NCBI RefSeq assembly: GCF_030013205.1
Contig: NZ_CP122648.1
Reading direction: 5' to 3' (one strand)
Source: Escherichia coli
Lineage (GTDB): Bacteria > Pseudomonadota > Gammaproteobacteria > Enterobacterales > Enterobacteriaceae
Length of the DNA stretch: 64,000 nt
Part shown: piece after piece, positions 6,443 through 61,710 of the stretch
Numbering within the stretch: the stretch's first letter is position 1
Layout of the letters: the number at the start of each line of letters is the position of its first letter
Translations under genes and position numbers: made by a program
Notes under the pieces: model-generated
Told to the model about the DNA's origin: nothing
The model's input: only the letters and a program-made list of their open reading frames with translations
Databases searched by the model: none

Positions 6443-6519
6443 TTTCATTAGTATCTTGAAAATCGGGTAATTACGACGCTAAATTAATGCAAGAATAAAA
6501 AACAGAGGAACCGTACGGA

Positions 6520-6984
6520 ATGCGTTTCTGCCTTATTTTGATCACAGCACTGTTTCTGGCCGGGTGTAGCCACCATAAAGCACCGCCGCCAAATGCCAGA
6601 CTTTCTGATTCGATTACCGTTATTGCCGGTTTGAACGACCAGCTACAGAGCTGGCATGGCACGCCGTATCGTTATGGTGGCATGACGCGGCGCGGTGTGG
6701 ACTGTTCGGGGTTTGTGGTTGTGACGATGCGCGATCGTTTCGATTTGCAGCTGCCCCGAGAAACTAAAGAACAAGCCTCTATCGGCACGCAAATTGATAA
6801 AGACGAGTTGCTGCCAGGTGACCTGGTCTTTTTCAAAACGGGCTCCGGACAAAATGGTTTGCATGTAGGTATTTACGATACCAACAACCAATTTATCCAC
6901 GCCTCTACCAGCAAGGGAGTGATGCGTTCCTCACTTGATAATGTCTATTGGCAGAAAAATTTCTGGCAGGCGAGACGAATCTAG
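6520..6984 (+). CDS. nlpC: NlpC/P60 family lipoprotein (putative peptidoglycan endopeptidase)
   Basis: 154-aa ORF, lipobox LAGC, NlpC/P60 Cys motif. Confidence 0.9.
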   Translation: MRFCLILITALFLAGCSHHKAPPPNARLSDSITVIAGLNDQLQSWHGTPYRYGGMTRRGVDCSGFVVVTMRDRFDLQLPRETKEQASIGTQIDKDELLPGDLVFFKTGSGQNGLHVGIYDTNNQFIHASTSKGVMRSSLDNVYWQKNFWQARRI

Positions 6985-7230
6985 TATGTCGAAAAATTGA
7001 CGGCGATGATACATCGCCGTCAATTTACTCCAGAATACGGTAGTATTTTGCAGACAAAAATTCCGTAAATGGATTATTCGTTTATAATCAGGATAATCTA
7101 AAAAAAGGACCCCTGAAAAAGTGGTTAACATGGAACAAATGAAAGTTACTCCTTCTGTAATTGTTATGTCTTATGGCCTCATCCCTTTTAGCCGGATACT
7201 GAAAAACATCCTTCGAGAGGGACGGTTACC

Positions 7231-7944
7231 ATGAAGATTTTTTTGGAGAATCTTTATCATTCTGATTGCTATTTCCTGCCGATAAGAGATAACCAGCAAG
7301 ACCTTGTCGGCGTTGAGTTAATTACCCATTTCTCCAGTGAAGATGGTACGGTTCGTATCCCGACGAGTCGGGTTATAGCGCAACTTACCGAGGAGCAACA
7401 TTGGCAATTATTTTCAGAGCAGTTGGAATTACTAAAATCATGCCAACACTTTTTTATTCAACATAAACTCTTTGCCTGGCTTAATTTAACGCCACAAGTG
7501 GCTACTTTATTATTAGACAGGGATAATTACGCAGGCGAACTATTAAAATATCCGTTTATTGAACTGTTGATTAATGAGAATTACCCGCATCTCGATGAAG
7601 GAAAAGATAATCGCGATCTTTTTTCCTTATCGCAAATGTATCCCCTTGTGTTAGGTAATTTGGGCGCAGGCAATAGCACAATGAAAGCGGTTTTTGATGG
7701 TCTTTTCACCCGCGTCATGCTGGATAAAAGTTTTATTCAGCAACAAATCACGCATCGCTCCTTCGAACCGTTTATTCGTGCGATCCAGGCGCAAATTTCC
7801 CCATGTTGCAATTGCATCATCGCGGGGGGCATTGATACGCCAGAAATAATGGCACAGATTACCCCCTTTGATTTCCATGCTCTCCAGGGATGCCTGTGGC
7901 CTGCCGTTCCCATAAATCAGATAACGACGTTGGTTCAGCGATAA
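7231..7944 (+). CDS. ydiV: Anti-FlhD4C2 factor, degenerate EAL-like protein
   Basis: 237-aa ORF matching K-12 YdiV; synteny. Confidence 0.9.
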   Translation: MKIFLENLYHSDCYFLPIRDNQQDLVGVELITHFSSEDGTVRIPTSRVIAQLTEEQHWQLFSEQLELLKSCQHFFIQHKLFAWLNLTPQVATLLLDRDNYAGELLKYPFIELLINENYPHLDEGKDNRDLFSLSQMYPLVLGNLGAGNSTMKAVFDGLFTRVMLDKSFIQQQITHRSFEPFIRAIQAQISPCCNCIIAGGIDTPEIMAQITPFDFHALQGCLWPAVPINQITTLVQR

Positions 7945-28636: not shown

Positions 28637-28773
28637 CGTGTAATGGCTGCATGAAATAAACAATAAAATATAAATAACATTATCAGCCTGCTGACGGCTT
28701 GAAGAGAGTCACAGTATCTTGTGCAACATTATTGGAAAGCGTGAGGGGCGAGGTAGCGAAGCGGAAAAATGTT

Positions 28774-28879
28774 AAAAAAAAGCCCATCGTGGGAGATGGG
28801 CAAAGACTACACACAGCAATTCGTTGTTTCACTCAGGGGATTTCCATGCTTATAAATCAATATGTTGATTTATAACCGT
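28774..28879 (-). ncRNA. rprA: Small regulatory RNA RprA
   Basis: Reverse complement matches RprA (ACGGTTATAAATCAACATATTGATTTATAAGCATGG ... GCCCATCTCCCACGATGGGCTTTTTTTT), between ydiK and ydiL. Confidence 0.85.
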
Positions 28880-29064: not shown

Positions 29065-30177
29065 TTACTTATTCGGTTTCTCGGTTTCGCCAAGTTCTTC
29101 GAGAATTTCTTCCGGTTGGTCCGTCGGCGGTGGGACCTCTTCCACCCACGCGGCAAACAGACGCCAGGAAACGGCTAAAAGAACCGGACCAATAAATAGA
29201 CCGATCATCCCGAAAGCAATCAAACCACCAATAACACCAGAGAGGATCAGGATCAGCGGTAAATCGGCACCCATGCGAATTAACATTGGGCGGATGACGT
29301 TATCCAGCGTGCCAACCACACCGCTCCACACTAACAATACCGTTCCCCAGGTGGTATCACCGGTCCAGTAGAGCCAGATAATCGCCGGAATCAGTACCGG
29401 CAACGGTCCAAGCTGGACAAGGCAGGAGAGGATCATTAACACCGTGAGCAACGTTGCATAAGGTACGCCGGATACGGCGAGGCCGATACCGCCAAGCACT
29501 GCCTGTACTAACGCTGTCACCACAACACCCAGCGCCACCGCGCGGATAGCTTGTGCCGCTAGCAGCACGGCGGCATCTCCACGAACGCCTGCCAGACGGG
29601 TTGCAAAATGGCGAATGCCTTGCCCCACTTGTTCACCGCGCCAGTACAGCAGGGCGCTGAAGAGAAGCATCAGCGCACAATGCACCATAAAGCGCCCGAT
29701 ATGCGCCGCCTGCCCAACGAACCAGGTGGTGGTGGTGCCAATATAAGGACGGACTTTTGCCATGATCGCCGTCCCCCCCATATCCAGCAAGTTGTGCCAG
29801 CCTGCATACAGCTTCGCGCCAATCACCGGAATGGTATTAAGCCACGCCAGATCGGGTAACGTCATGTCACCGCTGGAAATGGCTTTAATTAGCGGGCCGC
29901 TGCCGTCGACGATACTGTTAACCAGCAAAGCAATAGGGATGATAAACACCATCACTAATAACAGCGTCATCACCAGAACGGCGAGAGAGCGGCGGCCAAA
30001 CATGATCTTTTGCAAACGTAACAATACCGGCCAGGTGGCGATAACCACCGTACCGGCCCATGCAAAGCCGAGAATAAAGGGTTGAACAATCCACAGACAT
30101 GCCACAATCATGATGGCTAAAAACAGCACCGAAAGCAGAATTTGTGCGACATCCCTGGGCTGACGAACATTTACCAT
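29065..30177 (-). CDS. ydiK: AI-2E family transporter
   Basis: 370-aa ORF matching K-12 YdiK. Confidence 0.92.
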   Translation of the reverse strand: MVNVRQPRDVAQILLSVLFLAIMIVACLWIVQPFILGFAWAGTVVIATWPVLLRLQKIMFGRRSLAVLVMTLLLVMVFIIPIALLVNSIVDGSGPLIKAISSGDMTLPDLAWLNTIPVIGAKLYAGWHNLLDMGGTAIMAKVRPYIGTTTTWFVGQAAHIGRFMVHCALMLLFSALLYWRGEQVGQGIRHFATRLAGVRGDAAVLLAAQAIRAVALGVVVTALVQAVLGGIGLAVSGVPYATLLTVLMILSCLVQLGPLPVLIPAIIWLYWTGDTTWGTVLLVWSGVVGTLDNVIRPMLIRMGADLPLILILSGVIGGLIAFGMIGLFIGPVLLAVSWRLFAAWVEEVPPPTDQPEEILEELGETEKPNK

Positions 30178-30565
30178 AACAACTTTTCACCTTTTTTGTG
30201 CGTCAAATCGTCGACGCGACGTGAACACGCGAAACTCACCTGCATAATGATGAGCAATTTCAGCGGTTTTTAACAGGCCGATTCTGCCCTTAATTCTGAT
30301 GGGCGTGTTAGAAAAAAATGTGGTACAACAACTCAGGCAACACGCAAACGATTTACTCGTCGTATTTCAAGTTGCATGTGCTGCGGCTACGTTCGTTCAC
30401 CCCAGTCACTTACTATTGTAAGCTCCTGGAGTTCACTCGCTTGCCGCCTTTCTGCAACACGAAATCCATAGAGTAAACAAACATCACCTTTCAGTGCGCT
30501 ATTGCAGCAGCCTGAAAGAATAGTGTATCGACCTACATCACAGACCGCAGGAAAGGGTCAATATA

Positions 30566-33500
30566 ATGATTCCACAGATTTCCCAGGCACCCGGCGTCGT
30601 TCAACTGGTGCTTAATTTTTTGCAAGAGCTGGAGCAACAGGGGTTTACCGGCGATACGGCGACAAGTTATGCCGATCGTCTGACAATGTCGACCGACAAC
30701 AGTATTTACCAACTTCTCCCCGATGCGGTGGTATTTCCGCGTTCAACCGCAGATGTGGCGCTGATCGCCCGTCTTGCCGCGCAGGAACGCTATTCATCGC
30801 TGATCTTTACCCCCCGCGGCGGCGGCACCGGCACTAACGGTCAGGCGCTCAACCAGGGGATTATTGTTGATATGTCCCGCCATATGAACCGCATCATCGA
30901 AATTAACCCTGAAGAGGGCTGGGTGCGCGTTGAGGCCGGGGTGATAAAAGATCAACTCAATCAGTACCTGAAACCGTTCGGCTACTTTTTTGCGCCGGAA
31001 CTTTCGACCAGCAACCGGGCAACGCTCGGTGGGATGATCAATACCGATGCATCCGGTCAGGGATCGCTGGTCTATGGCAAAACGTCAGATCACGTACTTG
31101 GCGTACGCGCGGTGTTGTTGGGGGGCGATATTCTCGATACGCAACCTTTACCCGTCGAGCTGGCGGAAACGCTGGGTAAATCCAATACCACAATCGGGCG
31201 AATTTATAACACGGTTTATCAACGTTGCCGTCAGCAACGCCAGTTAATCATCGACAACTTCCCCAAACTTAACCGCTTTCTTACCGGTTACGATCTGCGT
31301 CATGTCTTTAACGACGAGATGACCGAGTTTGACCTGACGCGCATTCTGACGGGTTCAGAAGGGACGCTGGCCTTTATTACCGAAGCGCGGCTGGATATTA
31401 CGCCCTTGCCTAAAGTGCGCCGTCTGGTGAACGTCAAATATGACTCTTTTGACTCCGCGCTGCGTAACGCGCCGTTTATGGTTGAGGCGCGGGCGCTTTC
31501 GGTAGAGACGGTGGACTCAAAAGTGCTGAATCTGGCGCGGGAAGATATTGTCTGGCATTCCGTCAGCGAGTTGATTACCGATGTGCCTGACAAAGAAATG
31601 CTCGGGCTGAACATTGTGGAATTTGCTGGTGATGATGAGACGCTGATTGATGAGCGAGTAAATGCACTCTGTGCGCGGCTGGATGAACTTATCGCCAGTC
31701 AGCAAGCAGGTGTGATCGGCTGGCAGGTATGCAGTGAGCTGGCAGGTGTTGAGCGTATTTATGCGATGCGCAAAAAAGCTGTCGGCCTGCTCGGTAATGC
31801 CAAAGGAGCAGCCAAGCCAATTCCGTTTGCTGAGGATACCTGCGTACCGCCGGAACATCTGGCAGATTATATTGCTGAATTTCGCGCGCTGCTCGACAGC
31901 CACGGCTTAAGCTACGGTATGTTTGGTCACGTCGATGCAGGTGTCCTGCACGTCCGTCCGGCACTGGATATGTGCGATCCGCAACAAGAGATTTTGATGA
32001 AGCAAATCTCTGATGATGTAGTGGCGCTTACCGCGAAATACGGTGGTTTGTTGTGGGGCGAGCACGGCAAAGGTTTTCGCGCCGAATACAGCCCGGCGTT
32101 TTTCGGTGAGGAACTTTTTGCAGAACTGCGTAAAGTGAAAGCGGCATTTGACCCGCATAACCGACTCAACCCAGGGAAGATTTGCCCGCCAGAAGGTCTC
32201 GATGCACCGATGATGAAAGTGGACGCGGTGAAGCGTGGCACATATGATCGACAGATCCCCATTGCGGTACGCCAGCAGTGGCGTGGTGCGATGGAGTGTA
32301 ACGGCAACGGTTTATGCTTCAACTTTGATGCCCGCAGTCCGATGTGCCCGTCGATGAAGATTACCCAGAACCGGATTCATTCACCGAAAGGGCGCGCAAC
32401 GCTGGTGCGTGAATGGCTGCGTTTGTTGGCAGATCGCGGTGTTGACCCAGTCAAACTGGAACAAGAGCTGCCTGAATCAGGCGTCAGTTTGCGGACGTTA
32501 ATTGCCCGCACGCGCAATAGCTGGCATGCGAATAAAGGCGAATATGACTTCTCCCACGAAGTCAAAGAGGCGATGTCGGGCTGTCTGGCCTGTAAAGCTT
32601 GTTCGACCCAGTGCCCAATCAAAATTGACGTGCCTGAGTTTCGTTCTCGCTTTCTGCAACTCTATCACACCCGTTATTTGCGCCCGCTGCGCGACCACCT
32701 CGTCGCCACGGTCGAGAGCTACGCACCGCTGATGGCACGCGCGCCGAAAACCTTTAACTTCTTCATTAACCAGCCGCTGGTGCGCAAACTCTCGGAAAAA
32801 CATATCGGCATGGTTGATTTGCCGCTGCTGTCGGTCCCCTCGCTACAACAACAAATGGTGGGGCATCGCTCGGCAAACATGACGCTGGAACAGCTTGAAG
32901 CTCTCAGTGCAGAGCAGAAAGCGCGCACGGTGCTGGTGGTGCAGGACCCCTTTACCAGCTATTACGATGCGCAAGTGGTGGCGGATTTTGTCCGTCTGGT
33001 CGAAAAATTAGGTTTCCAGCCGGTGTTACTGCCATTTTCGCCAAATGGCAAAGCCCAGCATATCAAAGGCTTTCTTAATCGTTTTGCGAAGACGGCGAAA
33101 AAGACGGCGGATTTCCTCAACCGTGTGGCGAAGCTGGGGATGCCAATGGTGGGCGTCGATCCGGCGCTGGTACTTTGTTATCGCGATGAATATAAACTGG
33201 CGCTGGGCGAGGAACGTGGCGAGTTTAACGTCTTACTGGCGAATGAATGGCTGGCAAGCGCACTTGACTCACAGCCAGTGGCTACAGTCAGCGGTGAATC
33301 ATGGTATTTCTTTGGTCACTGTACCGAAGTTACCGCTTTGCCGGGCGCGCCAGCACAATGGGCCGCGATATTTGCCCGTTTTGGCGCGAAACTGGAAAAT
33401 GTCAGCGTGGGTTGCTGCGGCATGGCAGGGACTTACGGACATGAAGCGAAAAACCATAAAAATTCGCTCGGGATCTATGAGTTATCCTGGCATCAGGCGA

Positions 33501-33622
33501 TGCAGCGACTGCCGCGTAACCGCTGTCTGGCGACCGGATATTCCTGCCGTAGTCAGGTCAAACGGGTTGAAGGCACGGGGGTACGCCATCCTGTGCAGGC
33601 TTTACTGGAGATTATTAAATGA
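30566..33622 (+). CDS. ydiJ: FAD-linked oxidase with Fe-S domain (reported D-2-hydroxyglutarate dehydrogenase)
   Basis: 1018-aa ORF; N-terminal FAD-binding domain, C-terminal Cys clusters. Confidence 0.93.
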   Translation: MIPQISQAPGVVQLVLNFLQELEQQGFTGDTATSYADRLTMSTDNSIYQLLPDAVVFPRSTADVALIARLAAQERYSSLIFTPRGGGTGTNGQALNQGIIVDMSRHMNRIIEINPEEGWVRVEAGVIKDQLNQYLKPFGYFFAPELSTSNRATLGGMINTDASGQGSLVYGKTSDHVLGVRAVLLGGDILDTQPLPVELAETLGKSNTTIGRIYNTVYQRCRQQRQLIIDNFPKLNRFLTGYDLRHVFNDEMTEFDLTRILTGSEGTLAFITEARLDITPLPKVRRLVNVKYDSFDSALRNAPFMVEARALSVETVDSKVLNLAREDIVWHSVSELITDVPDKEMLGLNIVEFAGDDETLIDERVNALCARLDELIASQQAGVIGWQVCSELAGVERIYAMRKKAVGLLGNAKGAAKPIPFAEDTCVPPEHLADYIAEFRALLDSHGLSYGMFGHVDAGVLHVRPALDMCDPQQEILMKQISDDVVALTAKYGGLLWGEHGKGFRAEYSPAFFGEELFAELRKVKAAFDPHNRLNPGKICPPEGLDAPMMKVDAVKRGTYDRQIPIAVRQQWRGAMECNGNGLCFNFDARSPMCPSMKITQNRIHSPKGRATLVREWLRLLADRGVDPVKLEQELPESGVSLRTLIARTRNSWHANKGEYDFSHEVKEAMSGCLACKACSTQCPIKIDVPEFRSRFLQLYHTRYLRPLRDHLVATVESYAPLMARAPKTFNFFINQPLVRKLSEKHIGMVDLPLLSVPSLQQQMVGHRSANMTLEQLEALSAEQKARTVLVVQDPFTSYYDAQVVADFVRLVEKLGFQPVLLPFSPNGKAQHIKGFLNRFAKTAKKTADFLNRVAKLGMPMVGVDPALVLCYRDEYKLALGEERGEFNVLLANEWLASALDSQPVATVSGESWYFFGHCTEVTALPGAPAQWAAIFARFGAKLENVSVGCCGMAGTYGHEAKNHKNSLGIYELSWHQAMQRLPRNRCLATGYSCRSQVKRVEGTGVRHPVQALLEIIK

Positions 33623-34317: not shown

Positions 34318-34510
34318 TTCTGACTTAATGCCGCAATTTCGCCAAATCGACCTGGATTAACCTCCGTCCAGGTTCGATAACCTTCTTAATACTGCTTATC
34401 TACCCGCCTGATATTGTTCAAAAATAATACTAATCGCAGTTTGTGTTAAAACGGCGGGTTAGCTTTATGAGATTATTCTTATCGCCCCTTCAAGAGCTAA
34501 GCCACTGAGA

Positions 34511-34583
34511 GTGCCGGAGATAAGCGCCGGATGGGGTAGAAACCCTTAAGCCTGTGTCGCACAGACTTAAGGGTTTTCTTATT
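34511..34583 (+). ncRNA. rydB: Candidate small RNA (position and structure consistent with RydB)
   Basis: Structured segment ending in CCCTTAAG...CTTAAGGG hairpin plus TTTTCTT, between ydiH and sufA; RydB sequence not recalled, ends approximate. Confidence 0.4.
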
Positions 34584-34686: not shown

Positions 34687-34803
34687 TAACAATGAGATAC
34701 CTAATTCTTAGCGTGCCTGTTAACCCACACATCAGGGTCTATGCTTATTAAAAGCAGGAAAAAAGCATGTTTTACGGTAAAGCCCCTGCGTTTGCTGGGT
34801 TGA

Positions 34804-34820
34804 ACTGATAATCATTATCA
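34804..34820. promoter_or_regulatory. Fur box at the sufA promoter
   Basis: CTGATAATCATTATCAC about 50 bp upstream of sufA ATG; suf operon is Fur-repressed. Confidence 0.6.
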
Positions 34821-34865
34821 CTAACATGCTGTTATACGCTGAAAGCGATGAAGTGAGGTAAATCG

Positions 34866-61412: not shown

Positions 61413-61710
61413 TCCATTTCACTCCAGACCCTAACTTCAGCTCCTGCAAAATCGCAAGGTAAACGTTTGCCTTTACACACCTTACGCACAACAAAAGTGT
61501 TGCGGTACGCCGGAAAAACGACACGGAGCGTCAGGAAGGGGTCAATGGCCAGTACGCAAATAGTGTAAGCGTGGAATTTTGGCCGATCTTGACGAAAAGG
61601 GGAAGTGGTAAAAACACTTATCATTATAAATGACGGGAGATTTTTTCATCACAGTGTGTAAAAATGCGTAATATCACTTTTTGTGTGGTAATAAAAAAGG
61701 AGAAAACTTG

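Follow-up and report, generated by a model that had tools for sequence, protein, structure and literature searches.

The genes ydiK and ydiJ of Escherichia coli are divergently transcribed, and the intergenic region between them was analysed within a chromosomal window of 64,000 nucleotides (the whole stretch of DNA under study), which as a query showed 100% identity to strain CFSAN061763 and 99.3% identity, over the query, to K-12. ydiK is found at 29065–30177 on the minus strand with its start codon ending at 30177, and ydiJ at 30566–33622 on the plus strand, leaving a gap of 388 bp (30178–30565). An earlier reading of the sequence alone (the original prediction) had described this gap as one of about 390 bp upstream of a ydiJ-menI-ydiH operon, with no open reading frame (ORF) of 60 amino acids (aa) or more, and this description was confirmed with regard to gap length, gene order and the ORF list, the longest ORFs touching the gap being of 52 aa (30318–30476, plus strand) and 59 aa (30533–30712, minus strand, mostly within ydiJ). 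The same prediction had also called the gap unusually long and had proposed that it leaves room for an unannotated small RNA (sRNA), a small protein or multi-site regulation. Our analysis indicates that the gap is very probably long through two insertions in the leader of ydiJ, the larger being an ERIC (for enterobacterial repetitive intergenic consensus) element, and that ordinary features fill it. The features on the ydiJ side are as follows:

30321–30337, plus strand: main ydiJ promoter, with an extended −10 (TGgTACAAC, 30321–30329) and a start at 30337
30342–30357, minus strand: PurR operator AGTAAATCGTTTGCGT, predicted by matrix, at +6 to +21 of the ydiJ transcript
30354–30475, plus strand: ERIC/IRU miniature inverted-repeat element of 122 bp, transcribed within the ydiJ leader
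30481–30541, plus strand: insert of approximately 54 bp, with the 7-bp direct repeat ACATCAC on either side (30481–30487 and 30535–30541)
30550–30568, plus strand: ydiJ Shine-Dalgarno sequence (GGAAAGGG) and start codon, common to the long and short alleles described below

The sequence of the gap was compared by megablast with 5,426 complete E. coli genomes and was matched in 5,423 of these. The match was of full length in 4,255 genomes (the long allele, approximately 79%), with approximately 1,168 genomes (approximately 21%) giving a match split into two pieces, which represents a short allele found in strain 317 and in ST131 strains such as EC958. Alignment of the two alleles showed that the short allele possesses 10 bp (AATCTCTCAT) in place of the 185 bp at 30354–30538, resulting in a gap of 213 bp. 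The difference of 175 bp between the alleles is explained by the insertion of the ERIC element together with the segment of approximately 54 bp, and the lengths balance exactly, with 122 bp of ERIC element and 63 nt of remaining insert, less the 10 bp, giving the same 175 as is obtained when 213 is taken from 388.

The ydiJ locus was also taken from one genome per species for 80 species, with gap statistics being calculated on 77 Enterobacterales species. The divergent ydiK-ydiJ pair is kept throughout the Enterobacterales, with a median gap of 224 bp (interquartile range 206–277) and a gap of at least 350 bp in 11 of the 77 species. The gap measures exactly 213 bp in Citrobacter and 196–206 bp in Enterobacter, Klebsiella and Kosakonia. 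All of these gaps align collinearly with the short E. coli allele and share with it a variable spacer of approximately 10 bp at the same place. Given this collinearity, and a length equal to that of the Citrobacter gap, the short allele is on the evidence of these alignments the ancestral state. The long allele is also carried by E. albertii (L005) and by a divergent lineage of Escherichia (L004). The latter is a record titled Escherichia coli SCPM-O-B-8794, whose ydiK and ydiJ genes are 91.5–92% identical to those of the window, and it probably belongs to a cryptic Escherichia lineage, as its divergence of 21.9% at third codon positions is far above the usual range of E. coli.

The description of the gap as unusually long thus holds for the gene pair, when set against the species median, and does not hold within the strain. 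The other divergent gaps of the same strain within 50 kb are those of ppsR/ppsA (332 bp), ydiQ/ydiP (315 bp), ynhH/fumD (354 bp) and tRNA-Val/ydhQ (308 bp), and although the 388 bp of ydiK-ydiJ is the longest of the five, it is not an outlier among gaps of 308–354 bp. The ydiK-ydiJ gap thus counts as long for its gene pair and not among divergent promoters of E. coli in general. What the original prediction had missed is the source of this length, which is an inserted mobile repeat and not regulatory DNA that evolved in place.

ERIC elements (also IRU or RU-1) were reportedly described by Sharples and Lloyd in 1990 and by Hulton and colleagues in 1991, and the copies of E. coli are said to have been catalogued already by Wilson and Sharp in 2006. 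That the element at 30354–30475 is an ERIC element, and that it explains the length of the gap, can be regarded as virtually certain. These elements have been reviewed as sequences of approximately 127 bp with terminal inverted repeats and TA flanks, which form a long RNA stem-loop and are transcribed but extragenic (PMC2229807, PMC3184786). The copy described here is 122 bp proper, or 127 bp (30352–30478) when the full inverted repeat is included, as expected of such an element. Several short inverted repeats had been noted in the original prediction; these are real, and the dominant one is the terminal pair of 25-nt arms (30352–30376 and 30453–30477, 76% complementary) that constitutes the stem of the ERIC element. 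Its minimum-free-energy fold is one long imperfect hairpin on either strand, with an energy of −39.1 kcal/mol (z −4.5) for the plus strand and −56.1 kcal/mol (z −6.3) for the minus strand. It is extragenic, lying between ydiK and ydiJ, yet transcription covers it: with the main ydiJ start mapping at 30337, it occupies +18 to +139 of the 229-nt leader.

The element is not unique to the ydiJ locus, as judged both by copies found elsewhere and by alignment to other copies. It was detectable in 5,425 of the 5,426 E. coli genomes, the median number of places per genome being 11, and 300 records of a plasmid collection also gave matches, covering at least ten genera (Salmonella, Klebsiella, Citrobacter, Enterobacter, Pantoea, Vibrio and others). 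It aligns end to end with nine independent copies from six genera, namely those near prfH/yafP, ilvY/ilvC, ybhI/ybhJ, alaS and zapB/rraA, one of Pantoea, one of an E. coli plasmid and two of Yersinia. Common to all ten sequences are the termini TACTCGTC...TAGAGTA and a core of CACCCCAGTCACTTACT-loop-GTAAGCTCCTGG. The ERIC2 primer, with its sequence as quoted in PMC6066780, matches 30394–30415 on the minus strand with two mismatches, where no such matches are expected by chance. The ERIC1R primer has no ungapped match because this copy carries a 1-nt deletion, with which the primer aligns in the multiple alignment. The flanks of this copy are TT and AA, other copies have TA before TACTCG...GAGTA and TA after it, and the ancestral insertion point has TA (GATTAATC). 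Neither the short allele nor any of the non-Escherichia orthologous gaps examined contains the element.

With regard to its size (approximately 122–127 bp), its imperfect palindrome forming one hairpin, its core and termini, its extragenic but transcribed position and its occurrence in about a dozen copies per E. coli genome, the element is like the known ERIC/IRU/RU-1 elements, and its relatives occur likewise in Salmonella, Klebsiella, Citrobacter, Pantoea, Yersinia and Vibrio. It is unlike them in having the 1-nt deletion at the ERIC1R site and no clean TA flanks, in being located in a 5′ leader and not in an intercistronic region or 3′ untranslated region, and in having an end that overlaps a repressor operator.

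Insertions near this gene pair were also observed in other genera. There are ERIC-like copies 3′ of ydiK in Yersinia aldovae and Y. thracica (L038 850–954 and L049 820–931, respectively), that is, on the other side of ydiK, and as these lie downstream of the 3′ end of that gene, ERIC insertions appear to have hit the neighbourhood independently. Citrobacter sp. R56 (L006) carries an unrelated insertion of 89 bp (~2399–2487) at the same point of the leader as the ERIC element, giving it a gap of 302 bp, which suggests that this point may be a permissive insertion hot spot.

The non-ERIC remainder of the insert (63 nt, 30476–30538) is repeated nowhere else. A 67-nt query covering it (30479–30545) was found once per genome in exactly the 4,255 long-allele genomes, and alignments showed the tail insert to be present neither in the short allele nor in the outgroups. 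The flanking ACATCAC repeat suggests a separate insertion or duplication of approximately 54 bp. A hairpin (CUUUCAG-N17-CUGAAAG, 30488–30518) lies inside this tail, whose fold energy is ordinary (z 0.04). The possibility of a riboswitch or attenuator in the tail was considered and rejected on the basis of this fold energy, the lack of a U-tract after the hairpin, and the lack of a terminator-like site or Rfam match. An anti-Shine-Dalgarno-like CCUUUC was likewise discarded, as in the minimum-free-energy fold its pairing partner is in the tail and is not the Shine-Dalgarno sequence.

Transcript ends for the locus were taken from the available portion of the 5′-end table of Kim et al. (2012; PMC3415461), to which all statements on that table made here refer. 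Its U00096.2 coordinates were converted to window positions by subtracting (U00096.2 coordinate + 1,976) from 1,799,251. The underlying library was terminator-exonuclease enriched and had no untreated control. The ends, with U00096.2 coordinates in brackets, are:

30337 (1,766,938), plus strand: ydiJ, 49 reads, 229-nt leader
30486 (1,766,789), plus strand: ydiJ, 25 reads, 80-nt leader
30239 (1,767,036), minus strand: ydiK, 2 reads, 62-nt leader
30407 (1,766,868), minus strand: ydiK, 3 reads, 230-nt leader
inside ydiJ (1,766,581): ydiK, 4 reads, 517-nt leader

The main ydiJ start at 30337 is 8 nt past TGgTACAAC, and the upstream sequence given for it by Kim et al. (2012) ends in ...TGTGGTACAACAACTCAGG (PMC3415461). 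This extended −10 is located in a block (GAAAAAAATGTGrTAmAA) which in the alignment is nearly invariant from Escherichia to Klebsiella, and from the same promoter a leader of approximately 54 nt is expected for short-allele strains and other genera. In the predicted fold of the full leader the ERIC hairpin is retained and the Shine-Dalgarno and start region folds as in the short allele. The sequence CACAGACCGCAGGAAAGGGTCA is common to both E. coli alleles, E. albertii and Citrobacter, with GGGTC kept in Enterobacter, Kosakonia and Klebsiella. A CRP half-site (TGTGA) noticed by eye in the promoter block was rejected, as the sequence in E. coli itself is TGTGG and no partner half-site is present at N6.

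This start is directly followed by ACGCAAACGATTTACT (30342–30357). The 28 sites listed by Cho et al. (2011) were used to derive a PurR matrix (training scores of 11.8–24.9 bits, median 20.0), by which this box scores 18.4 bits and ranks second of 127,970 window positions. The top position, which serves as a positive control, was 61457–61472 (AGGTAAACGTTTGCCT, 21.9 bits); it is identical to the autoregulatory operator of purR (Cho et al., 2011; PMC3159470), which places purR near the end of the window. The box is also located under a region of PurR binding found by chromatin immunoprecipitation with microarray detection (ChIP-chip), namely 1,766,545–1,767,225 (U00096.2), labelled ydiJ/ydiK and with a log2 value of 1.08 with adenine (Cho et al., 2011; PMC3159470), the resolution of this region being too coarse to pin the site to the box. 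In 42 of the 77 Enterobacterales species the best match of the gap is an equivalent box scoring 11.8 bits or more, usually ending 18–37 bp before the ydiJ ATG, with shuffled gaps averaging 1–3 bits. With such a box so distributed, PurR control of ydiJ looks ancestral. The box at 30342–30357 is likely to be a working PurR operator. Such control would make physiological sense: SerA makes D-2-hydroxyglutarate, which YdiJ oxidises (PMC9504171), and glyA, gcvTHP and sdaCB are already under PurR control (PMC3159470).

When compared to the operators of the pur regulon (a 16-bp palindrome, ACGNAAACGTTTGCNT), the ydiJ box is alike in its score, which is within the range of the 28 sites, in its intergenic position beside a promoter and in an in vivo occupancy that rises with adenine. 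It is unlike them in having a weak half-site that is partly ERIC-derived and in its position at +6 to +21 and not at the −35/−10 region, and repression is in the case of ydiJ presumed. The junction of the ERIC element falls within the box, the last four bases of which (TACT, 30354–30357) are the ERIC terminus. The box of the long allele scores 18.4 bits and its equivalent in the short E. coli allele (GATTAATCGTTTGCGT) scores 12.3 bits; a PurR-like box beside the 89-bp insertion of Citrobacter sp. R56 scores 18.6 bits. The location of the junction inside a box of higher score is regarded here as an intriguing coincidence suggested by the alignment and not as a result.

The divergence from the window of each part of the locus was then calculated for the two other Escherichia lineages carrying the long allele:

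third codon positions of ydiK and ydiJ: 30.3% in E. albertii (L005), 21.9% in L004
promoter part of the gap: 5.1% in E. albertii, 1.1% in L004
ERIC element: 5.7% in E. albertii, 3.3% in L004
tail: 9.5% in E. albertii, 1.6% in L004

Fisher tests against the third codon positions gave p ≤ 3 × 10⁻⁴ in every case. The whole gap, insert included, diverges several-fold more slowly than near-neutral sites, which argues for constraint.

From these observations the following account of the locus can be proposed. In an ancestral Escherichia, two pieces of DNA (the 122-bp ERIC element and the single-copy segment of approximately 54 bp with its 7-bp direct repeat) would have entered the ydiJ leader, downstream of the PurR operator and ahead of the ribosome-binding site. 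Transcription of the ydiJ-menI-ydiH operon is driven by the conserved extended −10 promoter, with the start at 30337 known from published mapping. PurR with hypoxanthine or guanine would bind the operator at +6 to +21, presumably hindering RNA polymerase; PurR binding in vivo is published, and we infer its exact site and the repression. The mRNA of the long allele would carry the ERIC element as a long imperfect hairpin in its 229-nt leader, where it most likely modulates the processing or stability of the transcript by analogy with the copies of Yersinia, and the end at 30486 would be a product of processing at the hairpin or a weak secondary start. The promoter of ydiK would occupy the other 100 bp and be weak in exponential phase. 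No separate gene for an sRNA or small protein is required to account for the space. Of the proposals made in the original prediction it is multi-site regulation that was borne out, by way of the ydiJ promoter, the PurR operator, the transcribed ERIC hairpin, the second 5′ end at 30486 and the weak ydiK promoter.

The analogy with Yersinia refers to ERIC copies by which the stability of mRNA is controlled (De Gregorio et al., 2005, as cited in the reviews PMC2229807 and PMC3184786). Like these, the ydiJ copy is co-transcribed with a neighbouring gene and forms a long RNA hairpin, and a 5′ end lies just 3′ of the ydiJ hairpin, as expected if the element attracts endonucleolytic processing. Unlike the ydiJ copy, which is in an untranslated leader, those of Yersinia are intercistronic, and their effect depends on orientation and on upstream ribosome traffic, such that the likeness is one of analogy. 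By this analogy, a measurable effect of the ERIC hairpin on the expression of ydiJ may be entertained, if at slightly less than an even chance.

A number of points weigh against the account proposed. The insert is dispensable, as approximately 21% of E. coli are without it. A clean TA target duplication is not seen at the flanks of the ERIC element (TT and AA), and the substitutions in the ERIC stem (in the comparisons with E. albertii and L004) have no clear compensatory pattern. The low divergence of the gap could reflect recombination between lineages, or gene conversion among ERIC copies, and not selection. The 30486 end is either a weak secondary start or a processing product. The published PurR signal at ydiJ/ydiK is modest, was obtained with adenine only and has no motif listed (PMC3159470), and in the literature searched no experiment was found that reports a PurR-dependent change in ydiJ expression, nor were expression values for either ydiJ or ydiK in purR mutants.

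The inserted DNA may instead be selfish and neutral filler, with neither the ERIC element nor the 54-bp segment doing anything for ydiJ or ydiK. This would be consistent with the retention of the ancestral 213-bp gap by approximately 1,168 of the 5,423 E. coli genomes, including ST131 (EC958), with the unrelated 89-bp insertion of Citrobacter sp. R56 at the same point and with the lack of an unusual fold in the tail. However, relative to third codon positions of the flanking genes, divergence of the ERIC element and tail is three- to fourteen-fold slower in two Escherichia lineages, and the insert alters the outer half of the PurR box and extends the leader from 54 to 229 nt, changes which make an effect on expression likely; a wholly neutral insert is therefore held to be rather unlikely. 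At the other extreme, the insertion of the ERIC element may have rewired purine control of the D-2-hydroxyglutarate dehydrogenase operon, which is considered quite improbable. Were it the case, the terminal repeat of the element would complete a weak outer half-site (12.3 to 18.4 bits), the operator would have been moved 175 bp from the ribosome-binding site, with a structured leader added and a second 5′ end located past the operator, and the slow divergence of the ERIC element at ydiJ would reflect selection on that role. The long/short polymorphism would then represent a heritable difference in the purine response of ydiJ-menI-ydiH. As to the 30486 end, which is 11 nt past the ERIC element, it could mark a genuine ERIC-associated secondary promoter, whose transcript would start downstream of the PurR operator and partly escape PurR. 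It is represented by 25 reads in a library enriched for triphosphate ends and has TAAACA at −12 to −7. RNase E cleavage prefers a U at +2, and the sequence flanking this end does not fit that preference. On the other hand, the −10 is poor (3/6, with no T at −7), as is the −35, the promoter scan was negative, and in a library with no untreated control a structured processed end could survive. The idea of a general outward promoter borne by ERIC elements was rejected, since the available portion of the table of Kim et al. (2012) holds no further case of a 5′ end preceded by an ERIC end or core. No end matching that at 30486 is seen at other ERIC copies in that portion of the table, and a true promoter at 30486 is judged unlikely.

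The gap could also encode an unannotated sRNA, arising from the ERIC hairpin or as an antisense RNA starting at 30407 on the minus strand. Two catalogued sRNA families of Rfam, V_AS5 (RF02818, 32.8 bits) and Ysr49 (RF02766, 25.1 bits), align full length to the ERIC hairpin on its minus strand, and the available portion of the table of Kim et al. (2012) holds the 3-read minus-strand end at 30407, which lies downstream of the ERIC-loop sequence TACAAT. These were the only matches in an Rfam search of the gap and no family was above threshold, the scores of both being far under their gathering thresholds (96 and 95, respectively), such that the window sequence is a member of neither and the matches reflect ERIC-like hairpins. 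In addition, a scan of the gap gave no terminator-like site, the available portion of the 3′-end tables of Adams et al. lists no 3′ end within it, the MG1655 RefSeq record annotates nothing there, and 3 reads is at the level of noise when compared to the 3012 for rprA in the same table. An sRNA gene, as had been suggested in the original prediction, is accordingly very improbable. It was observed that the 30407 end begins 8 nt after TACAAT, that the ERIC loop resembles a −10 hexamer and that a transcript from this end would be antisense to the ydiJ leader. Known sRNAs do flank the ydiK-ydiJ-menI-ydiH genes, namely RprA (28772–28879, minus strand, 118.5 bits) and RydB (34484–34544, plus strand, 81.6 bits), both outside the gap.

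The suggestion of a small protein fared no better and is regarded as extremely improbable. Candidate ORFs of 31 aa (30376–30471) and 52 aa (30318–30476) do exist, and ERIC elements are known from review to carry ORFs able to fuse to genes. However, the 52-aa ORF and one of 40 aa begin upstream of the mapped start at 30337, and the 31-aa ORF, alone among those of at least 20 aa in starting in the ydiJ leader and ending ahead of the ydiJ start codon, is without a Shine-Dalgarno sequence, its own start codon lying inside the ERIC stem; RefSeq annotates no such gene in the gap.

Two promoters, an operator, a mobile repeat and a small insert in this way suffice to explain the 388 bp in full, leaving no candidate locus for an sRNA or small protein. 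Much of this was already known, with ERIC elements dating from 1990–91 and PurR binding in the gap having been published in 2011, and as a matter of discovery it is of little weight. What is added here is the exact predicted operator and its conservation, the ERIC junction inside it and the long/short polymorphism. The PurR peak left without a motif by Cho et al. now has a clear, phylogenetically conserved 16-bp box, and the natural insertion polymorphism of E. coli represents a ready-made test of the role of an ERIC hairpin in a 5′ leader.

The features on the ydiK side of the gap are as follows:

30239–30273, minus strand: candidate ydiK promoter TTAAAA-N18-CATTAT, with the −35 at 30268–30273, the −10 at 30244–30249 and the 5′ end at 30239
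30281–30298, no strand assigned: direct repeat ATTCTG-N6-ATTCTG at −56 to −39 relative to the ydiJ start, in the interval separating the two promoters
30199–30216, minus strand: inverted repeat GCGTC-N8-GACGC in the ydiK leader, approximately 10 nt 5′ of the ydiK Shine-Dalgarno sequence

The hexamers of the candidate ydiK promoter were read by eye (8/12) and are below the threshold of the promoter scan; the block is conserved in Citrobacter and E. albertii in the alignment. The ATTCTG repeat is nearly invariant in aligned Escherichia, Citrobacter, Enterobacter, Kosakonia and Klebsiella and looks like a candidate binding site for a regulator. The arms of the GCGTC/GACGC repeat change in a compensatory manner in Citrobacter, Klebsiella, Enterobacter and Escherichia sp. 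ESNIH1. When this 5-bp helix was specified by hand for 23 species, 67% of cells were paired compared to 25–50% in slid controls, with a covariation score of 0.384 compared to at most 0.256 in the controls. RNAalifold gave no consensus structure for the ydiK leader. The repeat could be a small conserved hairpin of that leader.

A Fur box over the ydiK promoter (30243–30261, 14/19) was considered and rejected, as shuffled gaps reach 13–14/19. Matches of at least 14/19 to the Fur consensus occur at 17 strand-specific positions of the window, and the conservation at 30243–30261 is explained by the core ydiK promoter located there. The best Fur matches in the window (15–16/19) were at 34801–34825, just upstream of sufA; these correspond to the suf Fur box (34807–34825, 16/19) and represent a positive control.

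Elsewhere in the window, the annotation of CFSAN061763 shows ydiV, which encodes an anti-FlhDC factor (~6454–7944), as a pair of pseudogene fragments with an IS1 transposase gene between them, and for this reason the strain probably lacks a functional YdiV.

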